A stretch of 64,000 bases of DNA from Candidatus Nitrosomirales archaeon (GTDB lineage: Archaea > Thermoproteota > Nitrososphaeria > Nitrososphaerales > UBA213): the NCBI GenBank assembly GCA_049199595.1, contig JBMCYV010000003.1, positions 28,421-92,420 on the forward strand, given 5' to 3'. The position numbers and the translations under genes were made by a program. The notes below the pieces were generated by a model that worked only from the letters and a program-made list of their open reading frames with translations, was not told the DNA's origin and did not search any database. Shown here piece after piece: positions 1 to 63,126 of this stretch. Position 1 is the stretch's first letter, and the number at the start of each line of letters is the position of its first letter.

Positions 1-260
1 CCCTGCTCAAGATGGCAGGAAGATGCAAAGATTTCCTTCTCTGCATGTATCGTCTTTACTATATTTCCACTTCTGACTGTATTCATCGATATAGGATCTT
101 CACGTATCAAGGGGAACCTGCAGTCATCATATGCTGGAAGTCCTTCAACTCCAACAGCATATGCCTGATTCATAACAGGTTGTACAAGAATAACGCCCAT
201 TACTAGAACAATGCCTAATACTATTCCTGAGTACTCAAGTCTCTTAGCTTGGGTTTCCAT
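1..260 (-). CDS. Secreted Cys-patterned two-module protein, family copy 0 (5' part only; the rest lies beyond the window edge)
   Basis: Reverse-strand translation from the ATG at 258-260 gives METQAKRLEYSGIVLGIVLVMGVILVQPVMNQAYA/VGVEGLPAYDDC..REDPISMNTVRSGNIVKTIHAEKEIF. This is the same signal peptide and module-A motif as 427..1164. ORF-track entry 12..206(+) is its antisense shadow. The conserved promoter module lies upstream (288..350). Confidence 0.8.
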   Translation of the reverse strand, partial: METQAKRLEYSGIVLGIVLVMGVILVQPVMNQAYAVGVEGLPAYDDCRFPLIREDPISMNTVRSGNIVKTIHAEKEIFASSCHLEQ

Positions 261-287
261 CTCTTCATTCCCTTACAGCTTCATAGA

Positions 288-350
288 TTATAAACAGGTA
301 TGAAATATGCAGTGGGATATTCAGTATCCTATGTTATTAATTGGAAGTAT
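288..350 (-). promoter_or_regulatory. Family promoter module, copy 0: upstream box plus TATA-containing box
   Basis: In gene orientation: ATACTTCCAATTAATAACATAGGATACTGAA, then 14 nt, then TTTCATACCTGTTTATAA, then about 29 nt ending AGAG-ATG. The same architecture and spacing occur at four other family loci. Confidence 0.6.
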
Positions 351-426
351 GGTAAATTTGGTTTTGCTAGAAGGTTTGCCAGATGTAGAAAATTAAGGTA
401 AGATTTCCAAAATAATATTAGATCGT

Positions 427-1164
427 TTAGTTCTGGATTGTTGAGAACTGGCAGGTTTCTACTGTTGCGTCTCTCAGGTCATCAGTCTGGTCTGTAATCA
501 GAACCACGCATCGCATCGCATGGAATTGTACTTCATCAACAGTCTGCGTCGCCAGATTTTCGAATACTATGGTGAACGTGACAACATCAACTTTCTTAAC
601 CGCCAAGGTTAGTGTACAAAAGAAGACTTCCTTCTGCGTTTCTATTGTCGTTACAGTGATACCCTTGTTCACGGTATTCATTTCTTGAGGATGTTTTATA
701 GAACGTTCTCCTGTTCCCTCTTCACATCCGCTTCCTACAAATACTGGACTTGTTGGAGGTACATAGGACTCACAATCAATCACTGTACTAGTGTTTTCGT
801 CTTTCAGACAGGTTGTCACAACAGCTGACGAACTTAGAACTTCTCTGGTAACGATATTTTCATAAACTTCGATATATGTCGTGACATCTGCTATAACCTC
901 GAGTTCACCTTGGTCAAGATCACACCTAAAGATCTCTTTTTCTGCATGTATGGTCTTCACTATATTTCCACTTCTGACCGTATTCATCGAGATGGGATCC
1001 TCAGCCTGTGTAAGAGAGGGACGGCAAGTATCATAACCTGGGAGTCCTTCTACACCAACTGCGTTAGCCCTCTGCATTGTTGGTTGTACTAGAACAAATG
1101 CCATAACTAGAACAGCACCTAGTGCTATTCCTGAATACTGAAGTCGCTTAGCTTGGGTTTCCAT
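427..1164 (-). CDS. Secreted Cys-patterned two-module protein, family copy 1
   Basis: 245-aa ORF. It has a hydrophobic signal (GIALGAVLVMAFVLVQPTMQRANA), module A (EDPISMNTVRSGNIVKTIHAEKEIFRC), module B (HPQEMNTVNKGITVTTIETQKEVFFC) and the C-terminal VETCQFSTIQN. Eight Cys are conserved, and it is paralogous to six other loci in the window. Confidence 0.85.
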   Translation of the reverse strand: METQAKRLQYSGIALGAVLVMAFVLVQPTMQRANAVGVEGLPGYDTCRPSLTQAEDPISMNTVRSGNIVKTIHAEKEIFRCDLDQGELEVIADVTTYIEVYENIVTREVLSSSAVVTTCLKDENTSTVIDCESYVPPTSPVFVGSGCEEGTGERSIKHPQEMNTVNKGITVTTIETQKEVFFCTLTLAVKKVDVVTFTIVFENLATQTVDEVQFHAMRCVVLITDQTDDLRDATVETCQFSTIQN

Positions 1165-1190
1165 CTCTTACATGAGAAGTACGTTCGGTT

Positions 1191-1255
1191 GTTAAAAAAC
1201 ACCTATGAAAGATATATGATGATCTTCAGTATCTTGTGTTACTAATCGGAAGTAT
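1191..1255 (-). promoter_or_regulatory. Family promoter module, copy 1
   Basis: In gene orientation: ATACTTCCGATTAGTAACACAAGATACTGAA, then 14 nt, then TTTCATAGGTGTTTTTTAAC, then about 30 nt ending AGAG-ATG. It starts only about 5 nt after the stop codon of copy 2. Confidence 0.6.
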
Positions 1256-1260
1256 GTCGC

Positions 1261-2400
1261 TTAATCTTGTATTGCAGAAAATTGGCATGATTCTACCGAA
1301 GCCACAAAATCTTCTAGGTCCAGATCAAAAGGTGCAGAACCTAACCGTGTACCATCGCCATCGTCATCCACGATCATCCCAACTACGCATCGAAATACAA
1401 GAAATTCTTTCTTCACTACCGGGTTAGCTGGGAGCAGGCTCAAGTCTTCCCATATCTCCGTAAATGTTACAATGTCAACTTTCTTTTCGTACCCTGGAAA
1501 GACTATTAAAACTGATCCTACATCAATCACAAAATCGTTAGTTCCTTCAGTAAGAAAGTCAAGGTTGCATATGAAGATCTCTTTTTGAGCTTCTATAGTC
1601 TTCACGATGTTGCCTTTGTTCACTGTATTCATTTCTTGTGGATGATCTACGGGGAGTGGTATGTTAATTTCTGCAATTATATCTCCAGTAATGTCGCTCA
1701 CTATTGTTATGATGGGACTAGCAGCTTCAATGCAATTCCTGACAGGTACCGGACCTGTTGGTATTGGAGCACTCTGGCATCCAAGCACTTGACCGCTTCC
1801 CGGCCGTCCTACAAGACCATCTTCATCATCGACATCATCATCTTCACCATCAAGGACTAACCCGCCTCCTTCCTTAACGCATGTTACCACAAGAGCATTT
1901 TTGTTTATGATTGATTTTGTACTAATGTTTTCATAGACCTCACCAAAGACAGTGATATCGACTGTTATAGGTAAGCCACCTTGCGCAGTAGCGCAACTAA
2001 ATACTTCTTTTTCGGCATGTGTGGTCTTGATTATGTTTCCATTCCTTACAGTGGTCATTGATATGCCATCTTCAGGAATGTTACTAATTCCGAATACAAG
2101 CGCAAAAAAGAGATTAATATACAAAGATGAACATGTGTCATACTCGGGAATTCCTTCCACAGTAACATTTGATACACTTGTCTGGGCTTTATTGCTCCCT
2201 TGCTCTCTCAAGTGTTCAAGTTGATCCCTGATCTTCTGCTCATCCTCAGGAGACAAGTCGCCTGTATGTTCTTCAATCATTGCTATTACGTCATCATCGC
2301 TTAAACTCTCATACTGTGCTGTAACCTGAGTCGGTTGTACCAGAACGAACGCTAGCGTTAGAAGGGCAGCTAAACCTGTTCCCCAGTATTGTCTTTTCAT
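1261..2400 (-). CDS. Secreted Cys-patterned two-module protein, family copy 2 (expanded form)
   Basis: The ORF track gives 1261..2448. The ATG at 2398-2400 (MKRQYWGTGLAALLTLAFVLVQPT) aligns with the signal peptides of the other copies. The protein contains EDGISMTTVRNGNIIKTTHAEKEVFSC, HPQEMNTVNKGNIVKTIEAQKEIFIC and the C-terminal VESCQFSAIQD. It also has an acidic N-terminal extension and long acidic or Gly-rich loop insertions. Confidence 0.8.
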   Translation of the reverse strand: MKRQYWGTGLAALLTLAFVLVQPTQVTAQYESLSDDDVIAMIEEHTGDLSPEDEQKIRDQLEHLREQGSNKAQTSVSNVTVEGIPEYDTCSSLYINLFFALVFGISNIPEDGISMTTVRNGNIIKTTHAEKEVFSCATAQGGLPITVDITVFGEVYENISTKSIINKNALVVTCVKEGGGLVLDGEDDDVDDEDGLVGRPGSGQVLGCQSAPIPTGPVPVRNCIEAASPIITIVSDITGDIIAEINIPLPVDHPQEMNTVNKGNIVKTIEAQKEIFICNLDFLTEGTNDFVIDVGSVLIVFPGYEKKVDIVTFTEIWEDLSLLPANPVVKKEFLVFRCVVGMIVDDDGDGTRLGSAPFDLDLEDFVASVESCQFSAIQD

Positions 2401-2421
2401 CTCTGGTATCTTTCTTGTTAT

Positions 2422-2487
2422 GCGATTTAAGGCACTATGGATCAACACGAATAATTTTCAGTATCGTGTGTTACTAATCGGAAGTAT
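2422..2487 (-). promoter_or_regulatory. Family promoter module, copy 2
   Basis: In gene orientation: ATACTTCCGATTAGTAACACACGATACTGAA, then CCATAGTGCCTTAAATC (a weaker TATA-like box), then a spacer ending AGAG-ATG. Confidence 0.5.
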
Positions 2488-2548: not shown

Positions 2549-3886
2549 TTATCCTAGATATTTTTCTATAGCGACTTCGTCGGGAGGCACGTAAGTCAAT
2601 GTCTTGATCATTGCACTGATAGCGTGCTGTGTATAATCAACCCTTGCAGTAGTAGATCCAAGTTGATAAACGAATGCACCTAGAGGCTCTTCAGGATCCT
2701 GATATGCTCCAGTGTTCGCCTTTGTATGTTGCAGTTTCATGAGAAAATTTGACGCCAAAAGTATAGATTGCTTGTATCTCTCCGCTCTCTCTTCATATCC
2801 CAATTTCTTTGCCAACAGATAAGCATCGCTAACTCCTTCACTTCTAACACCTGCAGTTATGCCTGGTATGCTCATTGTTCCATAAGCACCCAAATAATCT
2901 GGTCTCGGTGCATTATCGAGGTACTGCTGGCTCGTTAACCAGTCTTCCATCTGAAACACATAGTCTGCATACTTTTGTTTTGGTGATACTTCATACAATC
3001 TCACAAATGCTTGTGCAGTCCATGGAGTAAACTCCGTTGTGGGATCTTCGGTGAATGCGATACTGTAATACTCGTATGCTTTTTCTAGAGATTCCAAATA
3101 TCTCTGATCCTCAAAGAGCGTGTAGGCACGTATCAAAGCAAGCATTGCCTCTCCAGGATATATGTAGGAATCTTCATCGATCTCATATTCTCCATTGTAA
3201 ATATAGTAACTTTTGTATTTTCCTGTATCCTCCTGCATGAAAAGAATGAAATTAGTTAAATCTTTTATAGTATCAAGATATTTTCCAGTTTTTTCAACGG
3301 TTTCCAATTCTACCAATGCGATAGTGGTAAGACCTGCGCCGCCTAGTTTTGCATCATTATCATGAAATATGTAAGCTGTATCATCGTCAATATGTTCAAG
3401 ATGTTGCAGTAGAAAATCAACACCTTTCTTTGCAGATTCAAGATATTTTGGTTCGTGACTGTATTCGTAAAGCAAAACCAGAGAGTATACAACACCAGCA
3501 TGCCGCAGCATATTGTTGTCCATGCTGTAACTGTCAGTTTCTGGATAGTATTCATATTCATAACTTCCATCTGGCTTCTGCATTCTCACAACAAAATCAC
3601 CTCCAGAAATGATTGAGTTGTGCAACGCTTTGCTCAGATCTGTCTTTAATTCGATACTTGTACTTGCGGGAAGCACGACTGCACCATTCTTATCATCTTG
3701 TGCACTGGAATCTGTGAAAATATTAGGAGCCTCTTTGTACATGAAATACGTCGTGATCAAAACCGAGATAATTATGACAGAAATGATTAGTGCTAATAAT
3801 TTTGCAGTCGTTAATGTTATGCGTTTTGAAAATATGTTCTTCGCTGCTGGCAAATCTTCTGCATCTGTTTTCTTATTTTCTTTCAT
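2549..3886 (-). CDS. Membrane-anchored extracytoplasmic protein, possibly alpha/alpha-toroid (six-hairpin-like) fold; function unknown
   Basis: 445-aa ORF with a single N-terminal TM segment (LLALIISVIIISVLITTYFMY). Repeated aromatic-rich helical hairpin patterns (YSLVLLYEYS, GEAMLALIRAY, WTAQAFVRLYE) are reminiscent of six-hairpin or terpenoid-cyclase-like toroids. No catalytic motif was recognised. Confidence 0.45.
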   Translation of the reverse strand: MKENKKTDAEDLPAAKNIFSKRITLTTAKLLALIISVIIISVLITTYFMYKEAPNIFTDSSAQDDKNGAVVLPASTSIELKTDLSKALHNSIISGGDFVVRMQKPDGSYEYEYYPETDSYSMDNNMLRHAGVVYSLVLLYEYSHEPKYLESAKKGVDFLLQHLEHIDDDTAYIFHDNDAKLGGAGLTTIALVELETVEKTGKYLDTIKDLTNFILFMQEDTGKYKSYYIYNGEYEIDEDSYIYPGEAMLALIRAYTLFEDQRYLESLEKAYEYYSIAFTEDPTTEFTPWTAQAFVRLYEVSPKQKYADYVFQMEDWLTSQQYLDNAPRPDYLGAYGTMSIPGITAGVRSEGVSDAYLLAKKLGYEERAERYKQSILLASNFLMKLQHTKANTGAYQDPEEPLGAFVYQLGSTTARVDYTQHAISAMIKTLTYVPPDEVAIEKYLG

Positions 3887-6151: not shown

Positions 6152-8899
6152 ATGGCGCATAGACTACTCTTTACATTTGTACTGGTAACAGTCCTGTCTA
6201 GCGTTATCTCATTCTCTTCAATAGATTATGCATATTCAAAGGAAAGTAAATCGAGCCAAGACGGGGAAGTAGAGATGCAGGGACAATCTAGTGATAATAA
6301 CTCAAAAAGCCAGAAGGATTCAGATAAAAACAAGATAGTTGACGCGCTCGATGAAGAAATTAAGAACAAGTCAGATAGTTACAAGAAAGATGTAATAGCT
6401 TTACTAAATCTCCCAAGCGACCAAGCAGGAGGGAAAGTGAAGTTACTTAAGAAATTCCTTGGTGAATTTGAGATAGATGATGTTTATTCAGTAATACCTG
6501 GATTTTCTGCAACAATGACCAAGAAACAGATCCTTGCACTGGCAGCACTTAGTGACACTCTTCAAATCGAACCTGATCTTGAGGTCCACGCATTCTTGGA
6601 CGAATCTACTGTATGGTTTGGGGTACAGCAGGCTAGGACTGATTTAGGCGTTGATGGTAATGCTGATGGAAATCCAACTGTGTATAGCAAGGATGACATA
6701 GTCATTGCAGTAGTAGATACTGGCATAAATCCAAATCATCTGGATCTTGATTCTGGCAAGATCATAGCATGTAGGGACTTTGTCAACGGTGGAACAGTTT
6801 GCATGGATGATAATGGTCATGGAACTCATGTTGCAAGCATCGCCGCTGGTGAGGGTCAGGCAAACCCTGCATATGCTGGTGTGGCTCCAAGGGCTGCATT
6901 GGTAGGAGTCAAAGTATTGAACTCTGCTGGATCTGGCTCTACAAGCACGGTCATAAGCGGAGTGAACTGGGTTGTGCAAAACAAGGCACTGTATGGTATT
7001 GAGATCATGAATCTTAGCTTGGGTAGCACTGGTTGTTCAAATGGTAGTGACAGCCTCAGTTTAGCTATAAACAGTGCAGTAAATAATGGAATAGTAGTTA
7101 CTGTTGCTGCTGGTAACAGCGGACCCAAAACTTGCACCATAGGCTCACCAGGTGCGGCGCAAAACGCTATAACAGTTGGTGCAATGGCTGACGTAGGCGA
7201 ATTGGGATTCTCGATAGCATACTTTTCAAGCAGAGGTCCAACAGCCGACAATAGAATCAAGCCTGACATTGTTGCGGCAGGAGTTTCAATAACCGCGGCA
7301 CAAAGTGGTACCACTACTGGCTATACAACTCTTAGCGGAACAAGTATGGCCACTCCATTCGTTGCAGGTGTAGCTGCGCTTATGCTGGACGCAAACCCAT
7401 CACTGACACCTGCTGATGTGAAGGCTAGGATCATGAACACAGCTATAGATTGGGGTCCGGCGGGTATCGATGTTGATTATGGTGCTGGGCGTCTTGATGC
7501 TTACGAGGCTGTCAACAACGCACTATCGGTAGCATCTCTTGGAAACATAGCTGTACCAACTCATACCTTCATCTCTGATAGTCTGGGAGCAACTGGTTCG
7601 ACTGACACTTGGAGTATTGATGTTGCAGATACATCATATCCAATCTCCATAGCAATGATTATGACATCATGGTCTTCTTCAAGTTCCCCTGATTTTGATA
7701 TTGAACTTTACAGCCCCAGTAGTACATTAATTGCGATTTCTGACGGGACAACTAGGCAGGAGACCATAAAGGCATCGGTTTCTACAACAGGGATCTATAC
7801 GTTGGAAGTTTATTCATACACAGGAAGCGGTCCTTACTTCGTGGATCTTTCCTCAGGAAGCGCACCTCCGCCTCCACCAAATAATGCTCCAGTAGCAGTA
7901 GATGACTCTGCAACAACAGAGGAGGACGTATCTGTAATTGTCAATGTTCTAGCAGGTGACAGCGATCCGGATTTTGATACGTTAACTGTTACGTCAGTCT
8001 CAGCACCATCTAAAGGTGTGGCAACTAACAATGGAGACGGAACCGTAACATACAATCCAAATCTAAACTCGAATGGAGCAGATAGCTTTACTTATACAAT
8101 ATCAGATGGAAAAGGAGGAACCGATACGGGATCTGTAAGCATCACTGTTAACGCTATAAACGATGCACCGGTATCAAATAATCAATCTGTCACAACTACC
8201 AAAGATACACCAGTTGCTATCACTTTAGCAGGTAGCGACGTGGATGGGGGTGCACCGATATACTCTGTAGTCGTCGGACCAACAAATGGCGTCCTGTCGG
8301 GAATTGCTCCAAGCCTAACCTACACACCAAATACTAATTTCGTCGGTCTTGACAGTTTTACTTTCAAGGCTAATGATGGTTCGTTGGACAGCAATATTGC
8401 TATGGTAGACATAACAGTGAACCCTCCAGTAGAGCAGATATTTTCCGATGATTTCCCCAACTTTGCTAAATGGACAGAATCCAACGAGTTCGACTGGAAT
8501 GTTGAGAAATTCGCGGAAAAGAATGTTCCAGGACATACCGCATCGAATTTGGTTGCACATGCCGATAGATGCACTTCTTCTACCGGTTGCATACTCACGA
8601 GTAATGCTGTCGATTTGAGTGGTTATCAAAGTGCAACACTCACGTTCTGGAGATATGTAGATAATGACTTGGATAATAATGAATTTTTGAGAGTGCAGAT
8701 ATTTGACGGAACGAACTGGAATACGATATTTTCCTGGACAAACAGAAGCGGCGATGATGACACATGGCATCAGGAAACCTTTAACCTGTCAGGGTATCTT
8801 AATTCAGGCTTCAATCTGAGATTTGTGTCTAAACAAAGTTCTTCAAGCGAAGATACAGAAATAGATGATGTCTTGATTTCTGGCGTTCCTAAGATCTGA
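6152..8899 (+). CDS. Secreted multidomain subtilisin-like serine protease (S8) with I9-like propeptide, two cadherin/Ig-like repeats and a C-terminal jelly-roll-like domain
   Basis: It has a signal peptide and the catalytic triad motifs VVDTGINPNH (Asp), HGTHVASIAAG (His) and SGTSMATPFVAGVAALML (Ser). A PPPPP linker follows. Two roughly 95-aa repeats of the form NxAPVAVDD...DSFTYTISDG...VNAINDAPV come next. The C-terminal domain of about 160 aa has no motif I recognise. Confidence 0.9.
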   Translation: MAHRLLFTFVLVTVLSSVISFSSIDYAYSKESKSSQDGEVEMQGQSSDNNSKSQKDSDKNKIVDALDEEIKNKSDSYKKDVIALLNLPSDQAGGKVKLLKKFLGEFEIDDVYSVIPGFSATMTKKQILALAALSDTLQIEPDLEVHAFLDESTVWFGVQQARTDLGVDGNADGNPTVYSKDDIVIAVVDTGINPNHLDLDSGKIIACRDFVNGGTVCMDDNGHGTHVASIAAGEGQANPAYAGVAPRAALVGVKVLNSAGSGSTSTVISGVNWVVQNKALYGIEIMNLSLGSTGCSNGSDSLSLAINSAVNNGIVVTVAAGNSGPKTCTIGSPGAAQNAITVGAMADVGELGFSIAYFSSRGPTADNRIKPDIVAAGVSITAAQSGTTTGYTTLSGTSMATPFVAGVAALMLDANPSLTPADVKARIMNTAIDWGPAGIDVDYGAGRLDAYEAVNNALSVASLGNIAVPTHTFISDSLGATGSTDTWSIDVADTSYPISIAMIMTSWSSSSSPDFDIELYSPSSTLIAISDGTTRQETIKASVSTTGIYTLEVYSYTGSGPYFVDLSSGSAPPPPPNNAPVAVDDSATTEEDVSVIVNVLAGDSDPDFDTLTVTSVSAPSKGVATNNGDGTVTYNPNLNSNGADSFTYTISDGKGGTDTGSVSITVNAINDAPVSNNQSVTTTKDTPVAITLAGSDVDGGAPIYSVVVGPTNGVLSGIAPSLTYTPNTNFVGLDSFTFKANDGSLDSNIAMVDITVNPPVEQIFSDDFPNFAKWTESNEFDWNVEKFAEKNVPGHTASNLVAHADRCTSSTGCILTSNAVDLSGYQSATLTFWRYVDNDLDNNEFLRVQIFDGTNWNTIFSWTNRSGDDDTWHQETFNLSGYLNSGFNLRFVSKQSSSSEDTEIDDVLISGVPKI

Positions 8900-12628: not shown

Positions 12629-12793
12629 TTTTTCATAAGATTTGGTACGGGTTGTAACTCAAGTTATAGATTCTAGCAATAGAATCTGTTGTATGGTTTT
12701 ATGGTTTTCAAGTCATAGTAATGATGACATGGATAATTGTAAAGCAAATTACATACAGCTTAATAGCCTAGCGTGATTTTACTGTTCTCAGAG

Positions 12794-13645
12794 ATGGAAA
12801 CGTACGCTAAGAGACTAAAGTACTCAGGAATAAGTCTGGGTGCTGTATTGATCATGGCATTTGTTCTAGTTCAACCTATAATGAATCAAGCATACTCTGT
12901 TGGTGTACAAGGACTTCCAGCCTATGATGATTGTGAGTTGAGAGGAGTAACAGAAATAATTAATGGTGGGAGTAAACCAACCCAGCCCGAAGATCCAATA
13001 TCAATGAATACTGTTAGAAACCAGAATATTGTGAAGACTATACATGCAGAGAAGGAGATCTTTGACTGCAGATTAAACCAAGGAAATCTACGTGTGATAG
13101 TTGATGTTACCACCTATATTGAATTATACGAAAATATTGCTGATAGAGAAGTTATAGCTTCAAGCGCTGTAGCAGTAACATGTATCAAGGATGAAGGTAC
13201 TGCCACAGTGATTGATTGCGAGTCAAAACCAATTTCGTCAAGCCCGGTACCTGTTGGGAGTGACTGCGTAGAATTGAACTATATCACGCATCCACAAGAA
13301 ATGAATACGGTGACCAAAGGTGCAACAGCAAAGACAATAGAGGCACAGAAAGAAGTATTCATCTGCCCGCTAGGGGATCCGATAAGAGAGCTGGGAGTAG
13401 ACGCACAAGGGGAAGTATGTGGCGATGCCATTCCATTCGAGTGTTTCCCAACGCTTAAGAAAGTAGAGGTAATCCTATTCACTGAAGTATACGAGAACTT
13501 AGCAACACAGACAGTTACAGAAGTGCAGTTCCATTCTATGCGATGTGTAGTCTTGATCACTAACGATCACTTTAATGAAGATCCAGAGGACGATGTCCAA
13601 GACGCAACGGTGGAATCATGCAAGTTATCAACCATCGAAAACTAA
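12794..13645 (+). CDS. Secreted Cys-patterned two-module protein, family copy 3
   Basis: The ORF track starts at 12773. The ATG at 12794 (METYAKRLKYSG..) aligns with the family starts and is preceded by AGAG. It contains module A (EDPISMNTVRNQNIVKTIHAEKEIFDC), module B (HPQEMNTVTKGATAKTIEAQKEVFIC) and the C-terminal VESCKLSTIEN. A 28-aa loop insertion adds two extra Cys. Confidence 0.85.
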   Translation: METYAKRLKYSGISLGAVLIMAFVLVQPIMNQAYSVGVQGLPAYDDCELRGVTEIINGGSKPTQPEDPISMNTVRNQNIVKTIHAEKEIFDCRLNQGNLRVIVDVTTYIELYENIADREVIASSAVAVTCIKDEGTATVIDCESKPISSSPVPVGSDCVELNYITHPQEMNTVTKGATAKTIEAQKEVFICPLGDPIRELGVDAQGEVCGDAIPFECFPTLKKVEVILFTEVYENLATQTVTEVQFHSMRCVVLITNDHFNEDPEDDVQDATVESCKLSTIEN

Positions 13646-13662
13646 TACGACAATCCAAAACC

Positions 13663-14211
13663 CTATTTTTGCGCATATAACCTTACAATGTCCGCAACAG
13701 TAGCATTACTTTTTCCTTGGCTGATCAATTCTATTGTATCGCCAGCTCCAACCATACCTTCCCGCAATACTGCCAGATAAAACCCAGTGCGACCACTGGC
13801 CAAAAAACGTTTGACCATATCAGCTCGTCCGAATTTGATCCCTAGCTTGTAGCACGGCAGTCTTGGTTGTGTAACTTTCAGTTCAGCAGTTCCTATGCGA
13901 AAACGATCGCCAATCTTAACTTTATCTTCCATCAATCCTTCTGTTGTAAAGTTTTCCCCGAACATCCCCCATGGTAGTTTCATGTTAGGTAATTTCTGTC
14001 GCCAGTATTCGTAATGTTCTTTAGGATACACGTATACGGCTTTGTCGGCACCTCCATGCACAGACAGATCTGCTTGCTTATCACCATCAATGTTGAGTCT
14101 ACGCAGCATGACTCGTCCTTTAACTGGTTCTTTGAAGATCCCCGTTGTTATGGTTCTGTTTTTCAAGGTCACTTCGCGTGGAGTTCCTACATTAAGGGAA
14201 ACAAGTTTCAT
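13663..14211 (-). CDS. MOSC domain protein (YiiM-like)
   Basis: MKLVSLNVGTPREV ... DLSVHGGADKAVYVYP ... GENFTTEGL ... VTQPRLPCYKLG. The ORF track extends to 14247, but the internal ATG at 14211 fits family N-termini. Confidence 0.85.
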   Translation of the reverse strand: MKLVSLNVGTPREVTLKNRTITTGIFKEPVKGRVMLRRLNIDGDKQADLSVHGGADKAVYVYPKEHYEYWRQKLPNMKLPWGMFGENFTTEGLMEDKVKIGDRFRIGTAELKVTQPRLPCYKLGIKFGRADMVKRFLASGRTGFYLAVLREGMVGAGDTIELISQGKSNATVADIVRLYAQK

Positions 14212-14378
14212 TGTAGATAATGTATTATGGTCCCCACTAACTTGCATGCTATTGCTTATGCTATATACGTTAAATTTGTTTTTCTAATTCTGTTCCATTT
14301 AGCGAGAATCATTGAGCATGCACCGAATGAGAAACTCAGAAGATATTAATAAGATGTTACACACATAGAGTTTTAGCA

Positions 14379-14936: not shown

Positions 14937-15080
14937 CCTGAACGCCAGCCGCGCGAACTAGAATATTTTTTAACGATAGTTAGTTGTGTAACTCACTGCT
15001 AGGTTATGGAAGCCGATTTGGCATGGAATTGGATAACATTTGGGGAAATCATTAAATCCCTAAATCAGAAACTAGGAACC

Positions 15081-15554
15081 ATGAAGAAAAAAATAATCGC
15101 ACCAATAATTGCAGCGATAGTGGTGATAGCTACATATCCACTATATTCACCGCTGTTCATAAATGCAGTAGTTGACGAACCATTACCGGAAAAGATGACG
15201 GCAACTGAACCTACTACAGCATTGAGAGGAAACTTTGTAGGAGTAAATGACGGAATACACAATGCTGAAGGCATAGCGAAGATACTTACGGCAAGTGACG
15301 ATCAAACCATGCATCGAGTACTGCGCTTAGAGAACTTCAAGGCAACCAACGGTCCTGATCTATATGTGTACCTGTCCAAAGATGGAACAAGCATAAACGA
15401 TGGATACGTTAACTTGGGAAGACTGAAGGGCAACATTGGAAATCAGAACTACGACATACCGGAGGATGCTAATCTAGAGGAATATGACAATGTACTGATA
15501 TGGTGCAAGATGTTTTCTGTGCTGTTTGGCCACGCAGAGTTGAAAGCCGCATAA
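15081..15554 (+). CDS. DM13 domain protein, N-terminally anchored
   Basis: MKKKIIAPIIAAIVVIA anchor, then a DM13-like pattern: G.F.GVNDGIHNAEG ... LENFKATNGPDLYVYLS ... LG.LKGNIGNQNYDIP ... VLIWCKMFSVLFGHA. The ORF track starts upstream at 15006. Confidence 0.7.
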   Translation: MKKKIIAPIIAAIVVIATYPLYSPLFINAVVDEPLPEKMTATEPTTALRGNFVGVNDGIHNAEGIAKILTASDDQTMHRVLRLENFKATNGPDLYVYLSKDGTSINDGYVNLGRLKGNIGNQNYDIPEDANLEEYDNVLIWCKMFSVLFGHAELKAA

Positions 15555-15556
15555 CC

Positions 15557-15563
15557 TTTTTTT
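15557..15563 (+). terminator. Oligo-T tract after the DM13 gene
   Basis: A T7 run lies 3 nt after the stop codon. Archaeal RNA polymerase terminates at oligo-T tracts (established knowledge). Confidence 0.35.
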
Positions 15564-15661
15564 CTTACTTGCGGCAGATCATGGAGACCATCAAGATTTG
15601 GGTCAGATCTGGACAAAAGATGGAAAAATGAATTTAACTTATCCATAGCGAACTAGCAGGC

Positions 15662-15844
15662 ATGACAAGCATGATGGATGAGATAATTGAAGAAGCTGCG
15701 AAGAGGTACAGCAAAATGCCCTTAATAGAGTTACTCGCGGAAGAGAACCTGATGGCAAGATTGTTGTATATAGGAAGGCATGATAATACGGCGAAGAGAT
15801 TGCATACAATACTACGTTCAGAGTTAGAACGTAAGCTACGCTAG
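15662..15844 (+). CDS. Small hypothetical protein, paralog A of a 60-65 aa pair
   Basis: YSKMPLIELLAEENLMARL...LRSELERKLR aligns with YRKMSLTELLTEENTVQRA...LHKELDKKLR of 19312..19509. Conservation between the two supports that both are coding. Confidence 0.45.
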   Translation: MTSMMDEIIEEAAKRYSKMPLIELLAEENLMARLLYIGRHDNTAKRLHTILRSELERKLR

Positions 15845-15956
15845 ATGGAGGAAGAGAATCTAAATTGAGATGCCTTTCACGTGTAGGATCGATATCTAAG
15901 CAAATGTTGGATCAGAAGAAGATTAGTGTAAGTTATGGTATAGATCTAATGGGTGC

Positions 15957-17573
15957 TTGGAAGTGACAGACGGAAGAAAGTACTTTATGCTAGGTTTCGC
16001 GGTAGGAGGCGTATCCCTCATAATCTCATTTCTTCTTAGAGTCTTTGCTGGGGGGTTATTCATTCCTGAGCTTGCTGCTCAGACCATATTCTCGCTAATG
16101 CCTGGAGTGTTAGAGTCCCAGGCAGTGGAGACATTGGGGCCTTTGGCAAAACAACTGACATTCGCAGGTGCGATCGTCGGTAACCTGTTTCTTTACGGAG
16201 AGCTTGGTGTATTACTGCATGGAACATATAGGAAACTAGCTGACAAAGGATATTTTGTAAATATCGTACAATTGTCACTCTTATCATATTTGGTTCTATT
16301 TGCAATAGCCGGAATAATGTTGGAGGTTACACAATTTCAAAGCCAACCTCTTCCTATTTCTCTTATAGCTCTTTACTTACTTCCGCCACACATTGCCTTT
16401 GGTTTCATCTTGTATTTGAAGTTCCGACGAGAAATTGCTAGATCAGAATCTATCAAACAAATAAGCACTGGATTGCAAAGTGAAACTGATCTTGGAAGAA
16501 GAAAATTCCTTAACATAGCTGTAGCAGGTGCGGTTGGAGCGGCAATCCTGTTTTTTGGAGCCGGTTTTCTGTTTCCCAAATCTGCGAAATCGCCAGATCA
16601 AGGATCTCAGCAGGCAGAACCTTCCAATTCTGAGGATAAATCTGAAAACGTGGCTCTTGCCTCGCTTCTTGTTTCGGAAGTTACTCCCACTGATCGGTTC
16701 TACAGAGTGGATGTGAATATTTTAACTCCAGCCATTAACGGTAATGCTTGGAAGCTTAGCATCAGAGGGTTGGTAAACAATCCTTTGGAGGTTGCATATG
16801 AAGAGTTAAAGTCACTACCTGCTGTAGAAGAGTACGCTACCCTCGAATGCATTAGCAACAAGATAGGAGAAGATCTGATTAGTACTGCTCAATGGAGAGG
16901 CGTTCCCCTGAAAACTATACTTGAGAAGGTTCAGGTTAGACCTGAAGCAACTTACGTTGTCTTCAAATGTTATGATGGCTACGATGTAGGAATACCTCTA
17001 GAGCGAGCTGAAGGAACTATTTTGGCTTACGAAATGAATGCGGTCGCTCTTCCCCAAGCACATGGATTTCCATTGAGAGCTGTTGTTCCTGGTCTCTACG
17101 GGATGATGAATGCAAAATGGATAACGGATATAGAACTGGTCGACATGGTCTATGAAGGATTCTGGCAGAGGCAAGGGTGGGCCAACAACGCTGAATATCA
17201 AATACATTCTACAATAGTTAGTCCTGGGCGAGCTCTAACAGCACGGTTCGGCGACCTTAGCTCCTCAAAACTTGTGCTTGGAGACAAAGTGCCGATAGCT
17301 GGCATAGCTTTTGCGGGAGATAAAGGTATATCAAAAGTAGAGCTTAGCATGGATGAAGGAAAGACTTGGGAAGCAGCTAGAATAACGGAATCGCTTTCAA
17401 AGAACACTTGGGTTCTATGGAGCACTGAATGGAGTCCGCCAGCTGCAGGAAAATATAGGATCGTTGTTAGGGCAACTGACGGAACTGGAAAGCTTCAGAA
17501 ATCAGAACTTCAAAACCCATTTCCAAGCGGTTCAACAGGTTATCACGGAGTCAATATAACGGTAGAAGCATAG
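15957..17573 (+). CDS. Sulfite-oxidase-family molybdopterin oxidoreductase (MsrP/YedY-like) fused to an N-terminal polytopic membrane domain
   Basis: The C-terminal part carries Mo-domain motifs: FYRVD, TLECISN, WRGVPL, HGFPLRAVVPGLYGMMNAKW and a dimerisation/Ig-like tail. The N-terminal ~180 aa contain about five hydrophobic segments. These are followed by an internal twin-arginine-like motif, GRRKFLNIAVAGAVGAA. Confidence 0.85.
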   Translation: MEVTDGRKYFMLGFAVGGVSLIISFLLRVFAGGLFIPELAAQTIFSLMPGVLESQAVETLGPLAKQLTFAGAIVGNLFLYGELGVLLHGTYRKLADKGYFVNIVQLSLLSYLVLFAIAGIMLEVTQFQSQPLPISLIALYLLPPHIAFGFILYLKFRREIARSESIKQISTGLQSETDLGRRKFLNIAVAGAVGAAILFFGAGFLFPKSAKSPDQGSQQAEPSNSEDKSENVALASLLVSEVTPTDRFYRVDVNILTPAINGNAWKLSIRGLVNNPLEVAYEELKSLPAVEEYATLECISNKIGEDLISTAQWRGVPLKTILEKVQVRPEATYVVFKCYDGYDVGIPLERAEGTILAYEMNAVALPQAHGFPLRAVVPGLYGMMNAKWITDIELVDMVYEGFWQRQGWANNAEYQIHSTIVSPGRALTARFGDLSSSKLVLGDKVPIAGIAFAGDKGISKVELSMDEGKTWEAARITESLSKNTWVLWSTEWSPPAAGKYRIVVRATDGTGKLQKSELQNPFPSGSTGYHGVNITVEA

Positions 17574-48213: not shown

Positions 48214-48471
48214 CTACTCTTTCTCCCTGTTGATGCGCAGGGGGATAGGTTTTATCACCTTGCTTGCCTGTGATGCTAAATATACTATACCCAAGACAGT
48301 TGTCACAAGCAGCCATAGAAGTAAAAGTACTACAAAGATCGATATATTACTAGAGAGCGAACTTTCTCCATTGCGTGCAGTTGTTGTCAATAAGACTACA
48401 GATCCTACAGCAACGCCTAGCAACGCTAACCAGAAACCTTTCATTTGTGCTAGTATCTCTGATTTGTTCAT
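48214..48471 (-). CDS. Small two-TM membrane protein
   Basis: 85 aa with two hydrophobic helices. Its stop is 1 nt from the start of the downstream CBS gene, which suggests a likely operon. Confidence 0.4.
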   Translation of the reverse strand: MNKSEILAQMKGFWLALLGVAVGSVVLLTTTARNGESSLSSNISIFVVLLLLWLLVTTVLGIVYLASQASKVIKPIPLRINREKE

Positions 48472-48596
48472 TCCTATATCCCTGCAGGTTATGTTTCGTT
48501 AGAATGCGCTTTAAAGCCAGCACACGTTTTCCAGCGTTGATAATCATCTCTGAAAATTACGGAGATTTTATTAGTTCCATTCATACACAATACGTG

Positions 48597-48968
48597 ATGG
48601 CAACACAGGATGTAGATTCAGAATCTTGGGAGAGCAAGGTGGTCAAGTCAGACTTGCCTGTCGTTGTTAACTTCTGGGGTCCTCGTTGCGGGTTCTGCAA
48701 ATGGCTCGAACCGTTATATGAGAAGCTTTCAAATGAATACAGTGGGAAGATCGTATTTCTGAAACTCAATGTGGACGATGAACGTACCCATGGAGTATTG
48801 CATCATGTATCGATCGAAGGAACGCCCACACTGAAATTTTACTGCAAGGGAAGAGAAGTTGGCGAACATGTGGGTTACGCGGTTGAACCAGTCCTGAAAA
48901 AGAAGATAGATTTGATGCTGCAGGAAATGGAATCATGTTTAAAGAACAGCACGCCTCTGAAACGTTAA
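48597..48968 (+). CDS. Thioredoxin
   Basis: From ATG 48597: MATQDVDSESWESKVVKSDLPVVVNFWGPRCGFCKWLEP...KLNVDD...GTPTLKFY. The active site is CGFC. The track ORF starts far upstream at 48375. Confidence 0.85.
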   Translation: MATQDVDSESWESKVVKSDLPVVVNFWGPRCGFCKWLEPLYEKLSNEYSGKIVFLKLNVDDERTHGVLHHVSIEGTPTLKFYCKGREVGEHVGYAVEPVLKKKIDLMLQEMESCLKNSTPLKR

Positions 48969-51215: not shown

Positions 51216-52019
51216 GTGACATTAGCTAAGCGAATTATTCCGTGCTTGGATGTTGATAATGGAAGGGTTGTAAAAGGGACGCATTTTCTTGACATAAGGG
51301 ACGCTGGAGATCCAGTGTTGCTTGCAGAAAGGTACAGCAAGGAGGGCGCAGACGAACTTGTATTCTTGGACATAACAGCATCACAGCAGGGACGGGAGAC
51401 TATGAAGAACGTTGTCAAGGAAGTTGCAAAGGTGATCGATATTCCATTTACCGTTGGAGGCGGCGTGAGAACAATGGGTGATGCTAGAGATGTACTGCTC
51501 AGCGGCGCGGACAAAGTTTCCATCAACACTGCTGCTGTGAATGACCCATCACTGATAACGAAACTCATGAAGATATTTGGGAAGCAGTGCGTAGTAGTTG
51601 CTATAGATGCAAAACGTAATTACAAGACCATGAAAGGAAAGCATGTTGTGAAAGTAGGCAGCAAGAGATGCTGGTATGAAGTTTATGTTTATGGTGGCAA
51701 GAAAGCAACCGGTATGGATGCAATTGCTTGGGCAAAAAAGGCAGCAGAGCTTGGTGCTGGTGAGATTCTTCTTACAAGTATAGACATGGACGGGACGCAG
51801 AATGGATATGATATAGAACTTACAAAGGCCATAAGCAATTCCGTTAACGTCCCAGTGATAGCATCTGGAGGTTGTGGAGAACCAAAGCATATGCTTGACG
51901 TCTTCAGGTTTGGCGATGCGGATGCGGCTTTGGCAGCATCAATATTCCATTACGAAAAGTATCCAGTTCCACATGTGAAGCATTATTTGAGCAAGAACGG
52001 TGTCAGCGTTAGAATTTAG
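51216..52019 (+). CDS. hisF: Imidazole glycerol phosphate synthase, cyclase subunit
   Basis: RIIPCLDVDNGRVVKG, RDAGDPV, GADELVFLDITAS, TVGGGVR, LTSIDMDGT, ASGG. GTG start. Confidence 0.93.
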   Translation: MTLAKRIIPCLDVDNGRVVKGTHFLDIRDAGDPVLLAERYSKEGADELVFLDITASQQGRETMKNVVKEVAKVIDIPFTVGGGVRTMGDARDVLLSGADKVSINTAAVNDPSLITKLMKIFGKQCVVVAIDAKRNYKTMKGKHVVKVGSKRCWYEVYVYGGKKATGMDAIAWAKKAAELGAGEILLTSIDMDGTQNGYDIELTKAISNSVNVPVIASGGCGEPKHMLDVFRFGDADAALAASIFHYEKYPVPHVKHYLSKNGVSVRI

Positions 52020-52104: not shown

Positions 52105-52324
52105 CTTTAGCAAAGCATATTCAAAATGTTAACGTATACCTAGTATGTCATGAAAAAAGATCAAGCTACAGCTTGAATGATACAATGTAACATAAAGAAC
52201 AGATTTCTTGTCTTTCAGCTCTATATCAAATATTACAGGTTAAGAACATAGTAATGTGCTACCCTAAAATTTCTGCTGAAGATCCTTACGGCTTTATTAA
52301 GAATAAATCACAATCTACGAAGGA

Positions 52325-54343
52325 ATGAAAGTAGCGATAGGGATAGCTATACTGCTCATAGCATCTATCTTTGCATATTCACCTGTGTCAGTACAGGCAG
52401 AGGATGACGAGTTTGAGGCAGCAGCTGAGGATGAAGATCCTGGTAAGGTTGAAGGCACAGGTACGCATTTTGAAGTTACCAATAGCAGATACCTGAACGT
52501 TATCCTTGATAGTTCTGAGACTATTACTCTGGAGCTTGAATCAGTGCCCGAAATGGTAATTATGCATATTGGACCAGTCTCTGCTTCCTCTGCAACTATA
52601 ACTATCAGTGGATTTGCTCCAGAAACCACTTACCACACGTATGAAGATAGTTATGAGAATCATGTAGACTATACAACTGATTCAAGTGGAAGTTATACCT
52701 ACACTCAGGATCTGTCAGTGTCGCATCTAATATTCATACAGCCCAGAGAGAGTACGAAGATCTTAAAGGATGATGCTACTGGAGGAGATTGCACTTTGAT
52801 AGGAACTTGGGATGATACAAATAACATCTGCACTCTTACAACTAATGTAACAGAGACTATTGAAATACAGGATGATGGCATCACGCTAGACTGTGATGGA
52901 CATACAATAACTGGAACTGGTACAGGGAGTGGAGTATTTCTTAATGCAGTAGATAATGTCACTGTAAAGAACTGTACTATTACTAACTTTAGTGATGGAA
53001 TTCTCCTGTTTGATTCTGACAATAACAAAATTATGAATAACAAAATAAACGATGTTAATGACGATGGAATAGACGTTGGTGACGACTCCGATGATAACGA
53101 GATCAAAGGCAACACCGTCACACGTGCTGGTGACGATGGTATTACGCTTGACGATGAGTCCGATGATAACACCGTCGAAGGCAACACCATACGCAACTCG
53201 GGTAGTGATGGAATTTTTGTTGAAGACGACTCCGATGATAACGACATCCTCAACAATATAATCTTCGACTCTGGTGACGATGGAATGGAGCTAGATGACG
53301 ACTCCAGCGATGATGATAATAACACCATCGAGGGCAACTGCATCATTAACACTGATAGCGATGGAATCGACCTTGATGACGAAAACGAAGATAACACCAT
53401 CAAGAACAACACTATCATAAATGCTGACGATGGAATCGACTTTACCGACGATGACAACTTCGATAACGACATAGAGGGCAACACTATCATAGGTATTAGT
53501 AGTGGTGGAATCGAAATTGATTCCGATAATACAGGTAACGAAATCTTCAACAACAACTTCATCAATGCTGGTGACCCTTTTGATGATGACGGCAATAACG
53601 AGTTCGATAGACCTCTACCGATTGGAGGCAACTTCTGGTCCCAGTTCAATGAACCAAGTGAGGGATGCTTCAACACTAGTCCAGCAGATAGGTTCTGTGA
53701 CGATCCTTATGTCTTCTCTGGAAATCAGGATGACTTTCCCTACACCATACCTATAGGATCAACATGTTACTTCCAAGATACGCAGCCTGAAGATCCGATT
53801 TCAATGAATACCGTCAGGAACAATGGAATAGCCAAGACAATACATGCAGAGAAGCAGATCTTCAGCTGCTTCCTAGAGCAAGGTGACATACCGGTTATTG
53901 TTGATCTAACGATAGTTGCAGAGATTTATGAAGACATGAACACGCAGTCAATAATAAAGAAAGATGTCTTGGCATTAACCTGTATAAAGATTGCAACTTC
54001 AGCCAGTGTGTTGGAATGCGAAAGCTCAACACCTACAAGTGACGTAGCACCTGTAAAGCATTGCAGTGAAGAATCTATTGAACACCCTCAAGAGATGAAT
54101 ACGGTTAACAAGGGTAGTCTAGTAAAAACCATAGAATCACAGAAAGAGGTCTTTCTGTGTAATCTTGATAACAAAGGGGTATTTGACAAGAAGGTAGATC
54201 TGGTGTTATTCACAGAGATATGGGAGAATCTAAACAAGCTTCCAGATCCAATAGTCAAGAAGACATTCCTTTCATTCCGTTGTGTAGTGAACTTAGATGC
54301 AGCTGAAGTTGAGTCATGCAAGTTCTCTGACATAACCGACTAG
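52325..54343 (+). CDS. Secreted NosD-like parallel beta-helix repeat protein fused to a C-terminal copy of the two-module Cys-patterned family domain (family copy 4)
   Basis: It starts with a signal peptide (MKVAIGIAILLIASIFAYSPVSVQA). PbH1-type coils follow (ITLDCDGHTITGTG..GVFLNAVDNVTVKNCTITNFSDGILL). About ten acidic coils come next (DDGIDVGDDSDDNEIKGNTV...). From about aa 490 the family domain appears: EDPISMNTVRNNGIAKTIHAEKQIFSC, HPQEMNTVNKGSLVKTIESQKEVFLC and the C-terminal VESCKFSDITD. Confidence 0.85.
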   Translation: MKVAIGIAILLIASIFAYSPVSVQAEDDEFEAAAEDEDPGKVEGTGTHFEVTNSRYLNVILDSSETITLELESVPEMVIMHIGPVSASSATITISGFAPETTYHTYEDSYENHVDYTTDSSGSYTYTQDLSVSHLIFIQPRESTKILKDDATGGDCTLIGTWDDTNNICTLTTNVTETIEIQDDGITLDCDGHTITGTGTGSGVFLNAVDNVTVKNCTITNFSDGILLFDSDNNKIMNNKINDVNDDGIDVGDDSDDNEIKGNTVTRAGDDGITLDDESDDNTVEGNTIRNSGSDGIFVEDDSDDNDILNNIIFDSGDDGMELDDDSSDDDNNTIEGNCIINTDSDGIDLDDENEDNTIKNNTIINADDGIDFTDDDNFDNDIEGNTIIGISSGGIEIDSDNTGNEIFNNNFINAGDPFDDDGNNEFDRPLPIGGNFWSQFNEPSEGCFNTSPADRFCDDPYVFSGNQDDFPYTIPIGSTCYFQDTQPEDPISMNTVRNNGIAKTIHAEKQIFSCFLEQGDIPVIVDLTIVAEIYEDMNTQSIIKKDVLALTCIKIATSASVLECESSTPTSDVAPVKHCSEESIEHPQEMNTVNKGSLVKTIESQKEVFLCNLDNKGVFDKKVDLVLFTEIWENLNKLPDPIVKKTFLSFRCVVNLDAAEVESCKFSDITD

Positions 54344-54574: not shown

Positions 54575-54901
54575 ATGGACAAGGTGCTTGAAGATATAGA
54601 CTTCAAGAAGGAAGGCGGTCTGATACCCGTTATAATGCAGGATATCAAGACCAAAGATGTTCTCATGCTTGCATATGCAAACAAGGAAGCCTTGGAGCGT
54701 ACAGTAAAAAGCGGCAAGGCATGGTTCTGGAGCAGATCAAGAAACAAGCTATGGATGAAGGGCGAAGAGTCAGGGAATTTTCAGCAGGTCAAGAAGATAA
54801 TGGTAGACTGTGATTCTGACGCGCTAGTATATCTGGTAGAACCTGCAGGACCGGCATGCCACACTGGAAACAGAACTTGCTTCCACAATGACTTGAAGTA
54901 G
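54575..54901 (+). CDS. hisI: Phosphoribosyl-AMP cyclohydrolase
   Basis: GLIPVIMQD, VLMLAYANKEAL, WFWSRSRNKLWMKGEESGN, VDCDSDAL, GPACHTGNRTCF. Confidence 0.9.
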   Translation: MDKVLEDIDFKKEGGLIPVIMQDIKTKDVLMLAYANKEALERTVKSGKAWFWSRSRNKLWMKGEESGNFQQVKKIMVDCDSDALVYLVEPAGPACHTGNRTCFHNDLK

Positions 54902-55390: not shown

Positions 55391-55452
55391 TACGTTCGAT
55401 TAGTAACACGAGTTACTGAAAATTATCCCAGATACTTCATGCCTGTTTATAG
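55391..55452 (+). promoter_or_regulatory. Family promoter module, copy 5
   Basis: GTACGTTCGATTAGTAACACGAGTTACTGAA, then 14 nt, then CTTCATGCCTGTTTATAG, then about 28 nt ending AGAG-ATG. Confidence 0.6.
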
Positions 55453-55479
55453 ACTACGAGCGAAAGATCAAGGTCAGAG

Positions 55480-63037: not shown

Positions 63038-63100
63038 TACGTCGGACTAGTAACATGGATTCCTGAATATCGTAGGACATCTTTCATACCTGTTTATAAC
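63038..63100 (+). promoter_or_regulatory. Family promoter module, copy 6
   Basis: ATACGTCGGACTAGTAACATGGATTCCTGAA, then 13 nt, then CTTTCATACCTGTTTATAAC, then 26 nt ending AGAG-ATG. Confidence 0.6.
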
Positions 63101-63126
63101 TCATGAAATAACATACATTCAAAGAG

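Follow-up and report, generated by a model that had tools for sequence, protein, structure and literature searches.

An expanded family of putatively exported eight-cysteine proteins with a shared promoter element in a Candidatus Nitrosomirales archaeon

Described counterparts and the two-module family

Hydrophobins and the chaplins of Streptomyces are exported proteins that occur as sets of paralogs; hydrophobins have eight conserved cysteine residues, and chaplins exist as short free-standing and longer fused forms side by side. Each of these traits has its parallel in a family of putatively exported two-module proteins with seven copies (c1–c7) in a 64,000-nt stretch of DNA ("the window") from a Candidatus Nitrosomirales archaeon (assembly GCA_049199595.1, contig JBMCYV010000003.1, positions 28,421–92,420). 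However, the hydrophobin pattern C-CC-C-C-CC-C, which spans ~100 amino acids (aa), is absent from the family, whose cysteines are never adjacent and are distributed 4+4 over two modules of ~90 aa. Compared with hydrophobins and chaplins, the proteins of the family are also double the length, strongly acidic, and without marked hydrophobicity.

Other described proteins share different traits. Latexin matches the family in its length of ~220 aa and in its origin, the internal duplication of a β-rich subdomain of ~100 aa, but its cystatin-like subdomain packs an α-helix in a curved sheet, whereas the modules of the family are predicted to consist of strands only, and there is no cysteine pattern in common. 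The fungal effectors SnTox3 (6wes) and Fusarium protein D (9fei) are exported all-β proteins with several disulfides, but they are single-domain, eukaryotic, and without sequence similarity to the family, and their structural similarity is weak (E ≥ 0.039, TM-score ≤ 0.31). C-terminal carbohydrate-binding modules (CBMs) and lectin-like modules keep the same position and company as the family, which appears as a β unit of ~190 aa after a β-helix, a protease, or an Ig-like stalk and also on its own. This is a resemblance only in how the parts may work; the family matches no Pfam or NCBIfam model, including those of CBMs, and has a duplicated architecture with four predicted disulfides.

The existence of the family, with its architecture and its promoter, is in our view very nearly certain. 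A profile of 104 relatives, run with hmmsearch against the six-frame translation of the whole window, recovered exactly seven copies (E 6e-35 to 6e-122; Table 1) and zero extra fragments, the same seven that had been listed in an earlier note on this DNA. The counterpart of the truncated copy c1 is full-length and stands third in the same tandem order on a metagenome contig (L045). Copy c3 starts with the ATG at 2400, which follows AGAG and the promoter; the GTG at 2448, to which the open frame extends, only delimits that frame. Copy c4 starts at 12794. In the fusion c5, the profile matches residues 485–677 of the 678-aa stop-to-stop frame (nt 52307–54340), equivalent to residues ~479–671 of the protein. 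Among the six copies that can be aligned, identity to c2 ranges from 49 to 69%, and 71 columns, including those of the eight cysteines, are invariant. Pairwise synonymous differences (pS) of 0.6–0.9 are saturated, nonsynonymous differences (pN) are 0.2–0.35, and the ratio of the corresponding rates (dN/dS) is ~0.1–0.25 where dS can be estimated. Because synonymous sites are saturated and dN/dS is low, the copies are old paralogs and not assembly duplicates, as had been judged by eye.

Table 1. Family copies in the window and the promoter features upstream of them
Feature	Position (nt)	Strand	Description	Evidence
c1	1..260	-	N-terminal 86 codons, truncated by window edge	hmmsearch E 6e-35, profile positions 1-87
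c2	427..1164	-	Free-standing, 245 aa, 8 Cys	hmmsearch E 7e-117; query of first structure model
c3	1261..2400	-	Divergent free-standing, 379 aa	hmmsearch E 5e-83
c4	12794..13645	+	Free-standing, 283 aa, 10 Cys (extra pair in module B loop)	hmmsearch E 6e-122
c5	52325..54343	+	Fusion, 672 aa; two-module unit at extreme C-terminus, ~nt 53750-54343, last ~190 codons	hmmsearch E 4e-73
c6	55480..56229	+	Free-standing, 249 aa, 8 Cys, second N-terminal type (..KPKYLAISAAALLVTAFVLVQP..)	hmmsearch E 1e-121
c7	63127..63984	+	Free-standing, 285 aa, 10 Cys	hmmsearch E 9e-121
Upstream element of c1	320..343	-	CAATTAATAACATAGGATACTGAA	3 mismatches to consensus
Upstream element of c2	1225..1248	-	CGATTAGTAACACAAGATACTGAA	Alignment and mismatch scan
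Upstream element of c3	2457..2480	-	CGATTAGTAACACACGATACTGAA	Alignment and mismatch scan
Upstream element of c4	12714..12739	+	Degenerate remnant	Alignment
Upstream element of c6	55397..55420	+	CGATTAGTAACACGAGTTACTGAA	Alignment and mismatch scan
Upstream element of c7	63044..63067	+	GGACTAGTAACATGGATTCCTGAA, more diverged	Alignment
TATA-box region of c1	286..298	-	..TTTATAA..	~27 nt before AGAG-ATG
TATA-box region of c2	1191..1204	-		
TATA-box region of c3	2423..2435	-		
TATA-box region of c4	12756..12768	+		
TATA-box region of c6	55442..55454	+		
TATA-box region of c7	63089..63101	+		

Modules A and B of the family are clearly homologous (hhalign: probability 99%, E 3.3e-18, 30% identity), with all four cysteines in register. 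Both modules are present also in the most distant relatives, including bacterial ones, and the duplication, previously described as ancient, is therefore older than the spread of the family. With four cysteines in each module, eight are conserved in every protein, as had been noted; two of the window copies, c4 and c7, have an additional pair within a single loop (site 187/188). Among the 104 full-length relatives, 76 have eight cysteines, 25 have ten, and 3 have nine. The even number in 101 of 104 supports the disulfides that had been postulated, and the counts would fit four or five per protein. The mature part is acidic (median pI 4.19 for the 104 relatives).

Variation is concentrated outside the core. 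By entropy and indels, most substitutions and indels fall on five sites (positions 48–54, 122/123, 150–155, 187/188, and 226/227), and the insertions at site 187/188 average 7.6 residues and reach up to 56. The strands KTIHAEKEIF.C, VIVDVTTY.EVYENI, HPQEMNTV.KG..KT.E.QKEVF.C, and KKVD..FTE, by contrast, are nearly invariant. Across seven pairs of closely related genes, pN/pS amounts to 0.20 for the core versus 0.59 for the loops; since the overall value for the loops is below 1, positive selection on them is not demonstrated.

Copy c3 represents a subtype in which an acidic, helical insert follows the signal peptide, Cys1 is succeeded by a hydrophobic one, and the loops contain long insertions; this subtype occurs also in four other family members (P0069, P0080, P0088, and P0131). 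The post-signal insert of c3 is acidic, helix-like, and ~50 aa long, the stretch after Cys1 comprises 13 hydrophobic residues (LYINLFFALVFGI), and a loop of module A carries the poly-acidic insert GEDDDVDDEDG. All three inserts are conserved in P0080 and P0088, and P0131 shares the post-signal insert. In c7, codons ~60–76, between Cys1 and module A, encode a run of 15 threonines in mixed ACN codons rather than as a perfect repeat; this run may serve as an O-glycosylated linker. In the module-A segment of a further family member, a long insert rich in Thr and Val occupies that site.

The fold of the two-module unit is confidently predicted and has no detectable structural relative. The AlphaFold model of c2, based on the alignment of 104 close relatives (model 1; predicted local distance difference test score [pLDDT] 88.5, predicted TM-score [pTM] 0.79), has a helix at residues 12–37, followed by 12 strands. 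The independent model of the distant archaeal member P0192, based on a diverse alignment of 72 sequences (model 2; pLDDT 90.0, pTM 0.81), has the same topology according to DSSP, that is, an N-terminal helix and then 6+6 strands of ~15 residues, with modules free of helices. Each module is thus predicted to form an antiparallel β unit of six strands. The N-terminal helix is of low confidence in both models (pLDDT ~56–60 in model 1). To judge from the DSSP strings of model 1, the loops 185–188 and 226–233 would lie at the same end of module B in a β meander.

An earlier statement that the module does not resemble any characterised domain is borne out by all libraries searched. At gathering or curated thresholds, neither Pfam-A (2025) nor NCBIfam (20.0) contains a family that matches the two-module unit in six window proteins or in 10 distant members, and across all 104 members of the alignment no match is consistent, even when E values up to 1 are admitted. 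PHROGs (v4) and PADLOC (2.0) yielded zero matches, as did a sequence-profile search of the PDB. Foldseek returned nothing at E ≤ 0.001, either from the PDB with both models or from BFVD. The best PDB matches of model 1, the latexin chains 2bo9_B and 1wnh (E 0.037, probability 0.23, TM-score 0.16–0.18), are insignificant and do not appear among the top 50 of model 2; those of model 2, 9fei (E 0.039) and 6wes (E 0.17, TM-score 0.31), are equally insignificant, with 9fei at rank 7 for model 1 (E 0.26).

The N-terminus consists of a basic n-region, ~17 hydrophobic residues, the dipeptide QP, and then AxA or AQ. This arrangement corresponds to Sec signal peptides with a probable cleavage site for signal peptidase I, and such Sec-type N-termini support the proposed export. 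Archaeal class III signal peptides of the type IV pilin kind have a short basic N-terminus and a prepilin-peptidase site (K/R-G/A) immediately before a hydrophobic helix that the mature protein retains. In the family, the hydrophobic stretch precedes QP and AxA/AQ, which is typical of signal peptidase I. The residue to be compared with the prepilin-peptidase motif, position 12 before the hydrophobic stretch, is variable (Ala in 51% of the 104 sequences, Gly in c2).

Gln27 does not vary among the same 104 sequences, and Pro28 occurs in 98% of them, a conservation equal to that of the cysteines. The entire N-terminus had been described as a nearly invariant signal or anchor, but this applies only to its core, AF(V/I)L(V/L)QP, which is absent from every other open reading frame (ORF) of the window and of the archaeal loci fetched. 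There are two N-terminal types (ME..KRL.YSGI.. and MEMN..KPKYLAISAA..), which are paired with different bodies. On one metagenome contig (L062), an N-terminus of the c6 type precedes a body of the c4 type, and pN for that pair is 0.31 in the signal region versus 0.03 in the core. This mixing of N-terminal types and bodies suggests recombination between paralogs. In the fusions and the bacterial members, the signal peptides are of the ordinary kind instead.

The promoter element

The DNA upstream of the family's genes suggests that they may be jointly regulated. Three features are common to five of the six free-standing copies (c1, c2, c3, c6, and c7): a 24-nt element (CGATTAGTAACACnnGATACTGAA) that lies 60–90 nt before the ATG and ~20 nt upstream of the region of the B recognition element (BRE) and the TATA box; a conserved stretch, TTCATACCTGTTTATAA, in which the TATA box terminates ~27 nt upstream of the ATG; and AGAG immediately before the ATG. 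The claim of a dedicated promoter shared by the copies therefore stands for these five, but c4 has retained only a degenerate remnant of the element, which is absent before the fusion c5.

When up to three mismatches are allowed, the window contains four matches to the element, compared with 0.00 sites expected, and each of them precedes a family copy. Its retention despite the saturated synonymous sites of the same genes implies that it is probably under selection. The element is an imperfect inverted repeat (TTAGTAAC...GATACTGAA), as would be expected for the target of a dimeric regulator. By general archaeal promoter geometry, the spacing between TATA box and ATG points to leaderless mRNAs or mRNAs with a very short leader. 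The free-standing genes are probably transcribed from a promoter of their own that includes this imperfect palindrome. The same promoter architecture is found before both copies at a locus of a second genome (L005; GCA_040961615.1).

The element also appears to be specific to the family in the scans made. A metagenome scan with ATTARTAACAYNNGWTACTGAA returned 66 sites on 65 contigs. At 14 of these 66 sites, a family gene follows at canonical spacing, and at two more the TATA box and AGAG-ATG are complete, one at a contig end (L050) and one with a disrupted start (L016). The other ~50 sites lack TATA and AGAG-ATG, are located mostly on low-GC contigs, and are apparently chance matches or a different palindrome. 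Among the 66 sites, none of those in a full promoter context precedes a non-family gene.

Two groups of contigs deserve separate mention. On L016, positions 3514..3650 contain a complete family promoter (element, TATA, AGAG-ATG) with no family reading frame behind it, which is probably a disrupted copy. On five contigs from unrelated organisms with 26–29% GC (L018, L023, L024, L030, and L064), a near-perfect palindrome core (GTAACATATGTTAC within TTAGTAACATATGTTACTGAA) lies ~80 nt upstream of a gene whose product begins with MKKIIIS..; its likeness to the archaeal element is one of sequence only.

Distribution, fusions, and possible function

The first profile search, in a collection of 5.8 billion proteins, gave 257 matches (E <1e-85 for all of the best 120), whose sole label is "hypothetical protein". 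Where a source is named, it is "Candidatus Nitrosomirales archaeon" (locus tags HMLIMOIP) or a metagenome-assembled genome (MAG) of "Nitrososphaerales archaeon". Three additional copies (HMLIMOIP_000444-446) appear to share the 153,887-bp contig of the window; if the window belongs to that MAG, it contains at least 17 copies, ten named HMLIMOIP and the seven described here. In GCA_040961615.1, family copies are spread over at least three contigs. Among 1.84 billion cluster representatives (50% identity), 281 matched at E ≤1e-3 and 190 at E ≤1e-10. A search seeded with distant members yielded 71 proteins, all "hypothetical", from sources that include a Nitrososphaeraceae archaeon and a Candidatus Acetothermia bacterium, and the genes around one distant member (transglycosylase, SurA, SPOR, and sortase) are clearly those of a bacterium. 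A scan of GTDB species representatives with strict peptide patterns recovered 2 loci only and is uninformative on distribution.

The large expansion is specific to ammonia-oxidising archaea, which is the part of an earlier suggestion of lineage specificity that can be retained; the family itself extends beyond them, to MAGs of Nitrososphaeraceae and to bacteria. Nitrosomirales is a recently described order, and its description makes no mention of cysteine, secreted proteins, gene families, or this family (PMC10811736). A keyword search of the literature on cysteine-rich paralogs of ammonia-oxidising archaea returned nothing relevant.

In all archaeal multidomain proteins examined (21/21), the two-module unit is located at the extreme C-terminus, followed by only 0–17 residues. 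The fusion to a surface β-helix protein that had been noticed in c5 is one of several recurrent architectures: in c5, an ordinary signal peptide is followed by a NosD/right-handed β-helix region (Pfam PF05048, 3e-30; PF13229, 2e-28), a partner present also in P0135, and other partners are a SpaA-type prealbumin-like domain (P0136, P0141, and P0152), Big_9/cadherin-like/PKD domains (P0145), and a subtilase (P0160, named "S8 family peptidase [Nitrososphaerales archaeon]"). In the bacterial P0320, the unit comes first and is followed by a CHU_C tail of the type IX secretion system (T9SS; 31.9 bits vs a cut-off of 27); P0231 of Candidatus Acetothermia bacterium has the same order, with CHU_C at 26.9 bits, just below that cut-off. 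Because it is last in archaeal fusions and first before a T9SS tail, the unit is an autonomous extracellular domain and not a secretion signal. None of the window copies has a CHU_C/Por-type sorting domain; their C-terminus is formed by the module.

The window also encodes a secreted subtilase (Peptidase_S8; 6152..8899, + strand, 915 aa) with Big_9/cadherin-like repeats and a weakly MAM-like C-terminus. P0160, an archaeal relative of this protein, has the eight-cysteine unit at its C-terminus instead.

We tentatively interpret the family as exported, disulfide-locked binding modules whose loops set specificity. The proteins would be exported and their signal peptides cleaved at the QP...AxA site, after which four or five disulfides would lock an acidic (pI ~4.2) β scaffold whose variable loops might form a ligand-binding surface. 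The paralogs would then constitute a co-regulated repertoire of binding proteins with differing specificities, turned on together by a dimeric transcription factor on the upstream element. In the fusions, the unit would hold a protease, a β-helix enzyme, or an Ig-like stalk on its target, probably a component of the cell envelope or the extracellular matrix (S-layer, glycan, or extracellular polymeric substances). Several observations weigh against this interpretation. It derives its binding function from architecture and conservation pattern only, and the pN/pS of 0.59 in the loops fits relaxed constraint as well as diversification. Free-standing copies without an attached effector are not what a pure anchoring domain predicts. 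Moreover, an ordinary cleaved signal peptide does not explain the conserved N-terminus, with its invariant Gln and the AFVLVQP core, which may point to a membrane-anchored form.

An alternative that we regard as rather doubtful is that the units serve for structure or docking by binding one another, as is conceivable for a duplicated domain with pseudo-symmetry. The free-standing copies would then build a coat or matrix on the cell surface or, should their conserved N-terminal helix remain uncleaved, provide docking sites anchored in the membrane, and the fusions would be recruited via their C-terminal unit in a cohesin/dockerin-like or chaplin-like manner. The contrast between the ordinary signal peptides of the fusions and the special AFVLVQP N-terminus of the free-standing copies would be in agreement with such a division of labour, as would the invariably C-terminal position of the unit in archaeal fusions, a single promoter type that drives many paralogs, as for components made together, and an AlphaFold helix that spans residues 12–37. 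However, that helix is of low confidence, a helix-breaking Pro and an AxA/AQ motif typical of signal peptidase I come after the hydrophobic stretch in distant members as well, and the bacterial members look like single-copy passengers with ordinary signal peptides.

It is improbable that the proteins are secreted protease inhibitors of the latexin/cystatin type, directed against own or foreign exoproteases and acting intramolecularly in the S8 fusion. Although latexin is the top Foldseek match of model 1 in the PDB (E ~0.04) and is also internally duplicated, and although a subtilase occurs as fusion partner (P0160) and another, large and secreted, in the window (6152..8899), the similarity is insignificant and restricted to model 1, the modules lack the helix of cystatin-like domains, and most fusion partners are not proteases. 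A repertoire of secreted toxins or antimicrobial effectors against competitors, built as disulfide-rich β proteins, is highly improbable. The weak top matches of model 2 are indeed disulfide-rich effectors of fungi, one of which recurs with model 1, and an exported set of paralogs with variable loops would suit such a role; but TM-scores do not exceed 0.31, there are no cognate immunity genes or dedicated exporters beside the copies, whose neighbours are housekeeping genes, PADLOC and PHROGs are without matches, and the core is under strong purifying selection. The probability that the family is an artefact of assembly or binning duplications or of spurious ORFs is negligible in view of the saturated synonymous sites and low dN/dS, the same tandem order on independent metagenome contigs (L045), and hundreds of homologs in independent data sets.

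A broader hypothesis, which is speculative and on balance unlikely to be correct in full, is that a new protein fold forms a dedicated, jointly regulated cell-surface system in ammonia-oxidising archaea. Free-standing paralogs, possibly kept in the membrane by the AFVLVQP helix, and C-terminally tagged proteases, β-helix proteins, and adhesins would constitute a variable surface repertoire or engage in module-to-module docking under the control of one transcription factor on the family-specific element. A key step in nitrogen cycling depends on ammonia-oxidising archaea, whose cell surface, to our knowledge, has been little characterised apart from the S-layer. The family appears to be among the most expanded exported gene sets in Nitrosomirales, and its unit marks the C-terminus of several classes of surface-enzyme and adhesin-like proteins. 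The compact promoter element, which in the scans made was not seen in its full context before any other gene, offers a handle on archaeal gene activation, and the ligand, once defined, would reveal the means by which these uncultured archaea adhere to surfaces, retain exoenzymes, or engage with their neighbours. The domain merits a curated family entry that would link hundreds of "hypothetical proteins".

Genomic neighbourhood

The copies are dispersed, with unrelated genes around them (housekeeping and toxin-antitoxin). Across the genomes compared, no gene accompanies them consistently, and their surroundings give no functional hint. Copy c4 is located downstream of an IMP dehydrogenase gene, and c5 lies between hisF (51216..52019) and an ORF of 108 aa (54575..54901, + strand) that by eye resembles phosphoribosyl-AMP cyclohydrolase (HisI), which would place the β-helix fusion gene inside a histidine-biosynthesis cluster. 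Rfam and tRNA scans of the window detected no RNA genes.

Copy c7 follows ThiF/ThiS-type genes and is divergent from the gene of a membrane protein with a helix-turn-helix (HTH) domain; its ortholog occupies the same neighbourhood in GCA_040961615.1 (L005). The HTH-membrane protein (62154..62951, - strand, 265 aa) has an N-terminal winged HTH with weak matches to HTH_11, HTH_24, and HTH_5, followed by a long multi-span hydrophobic region, and is a candidate for a membrane-bound regulator that acts on the upstream element of the family. An ORF of 265 aa stands at the same position beside the c7 ortholog (L005, 5601..6398); the correspondence is one of position and size.

The gene directly upstream of the c3-c2-c1 array (2549..3886, - strand) encodes a protein of 445 aa with an N-terminal membrane span and weak matches to α/α-toroid domains (C5-epimerase C-terminus, pectic acid lyase). 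Metagenome contig L045 has the copies in the same tandem order, c3-c2-c1, whereas on L056 the ortholog of the 445-aa protein is followed by two family copies of a different subtype, which indicates that the array turns over by gene birth and death. A functional link between the family and the 445-aa membrane protein was considered and rejected, because the protein is not homologous to the 446-aa gene product beside a copy in another genome (L007), and its presence in L056 is plain synteny between relatives. A Rosetta-stone argument from the β-helix gene beside the L007 copy was likewise dismissed, because the two β-helix proteins share only generic repeat similarity.

Several other genes of the window encode proteins of possible interest. 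Beside c4 (15006..17573, + strand; 13663..14247, - strand) are genes for DM13-domain, molybdopterin oxidoreductase (Oxidored_molyb and Mo-co dimerisation), and MOSC-domain proteins. A protein with a thioredoxin fold (48375..48968, + strand), which has ~75 extra residues before the domain from a possibly wrong GTG start, may matter for the thiol-disulfide chemistry of exported disulfide-rich proteins. RTX calcium-binding repeats are unusual in an archaeon, but they are present in an exported protein of 331 aa (60427..61422, + strand), where they follow extremely acidic, Asp/Glu-rich repeats in the form of RTX nonapeptide repeats (HemolysinCabind, 1.8e-19).

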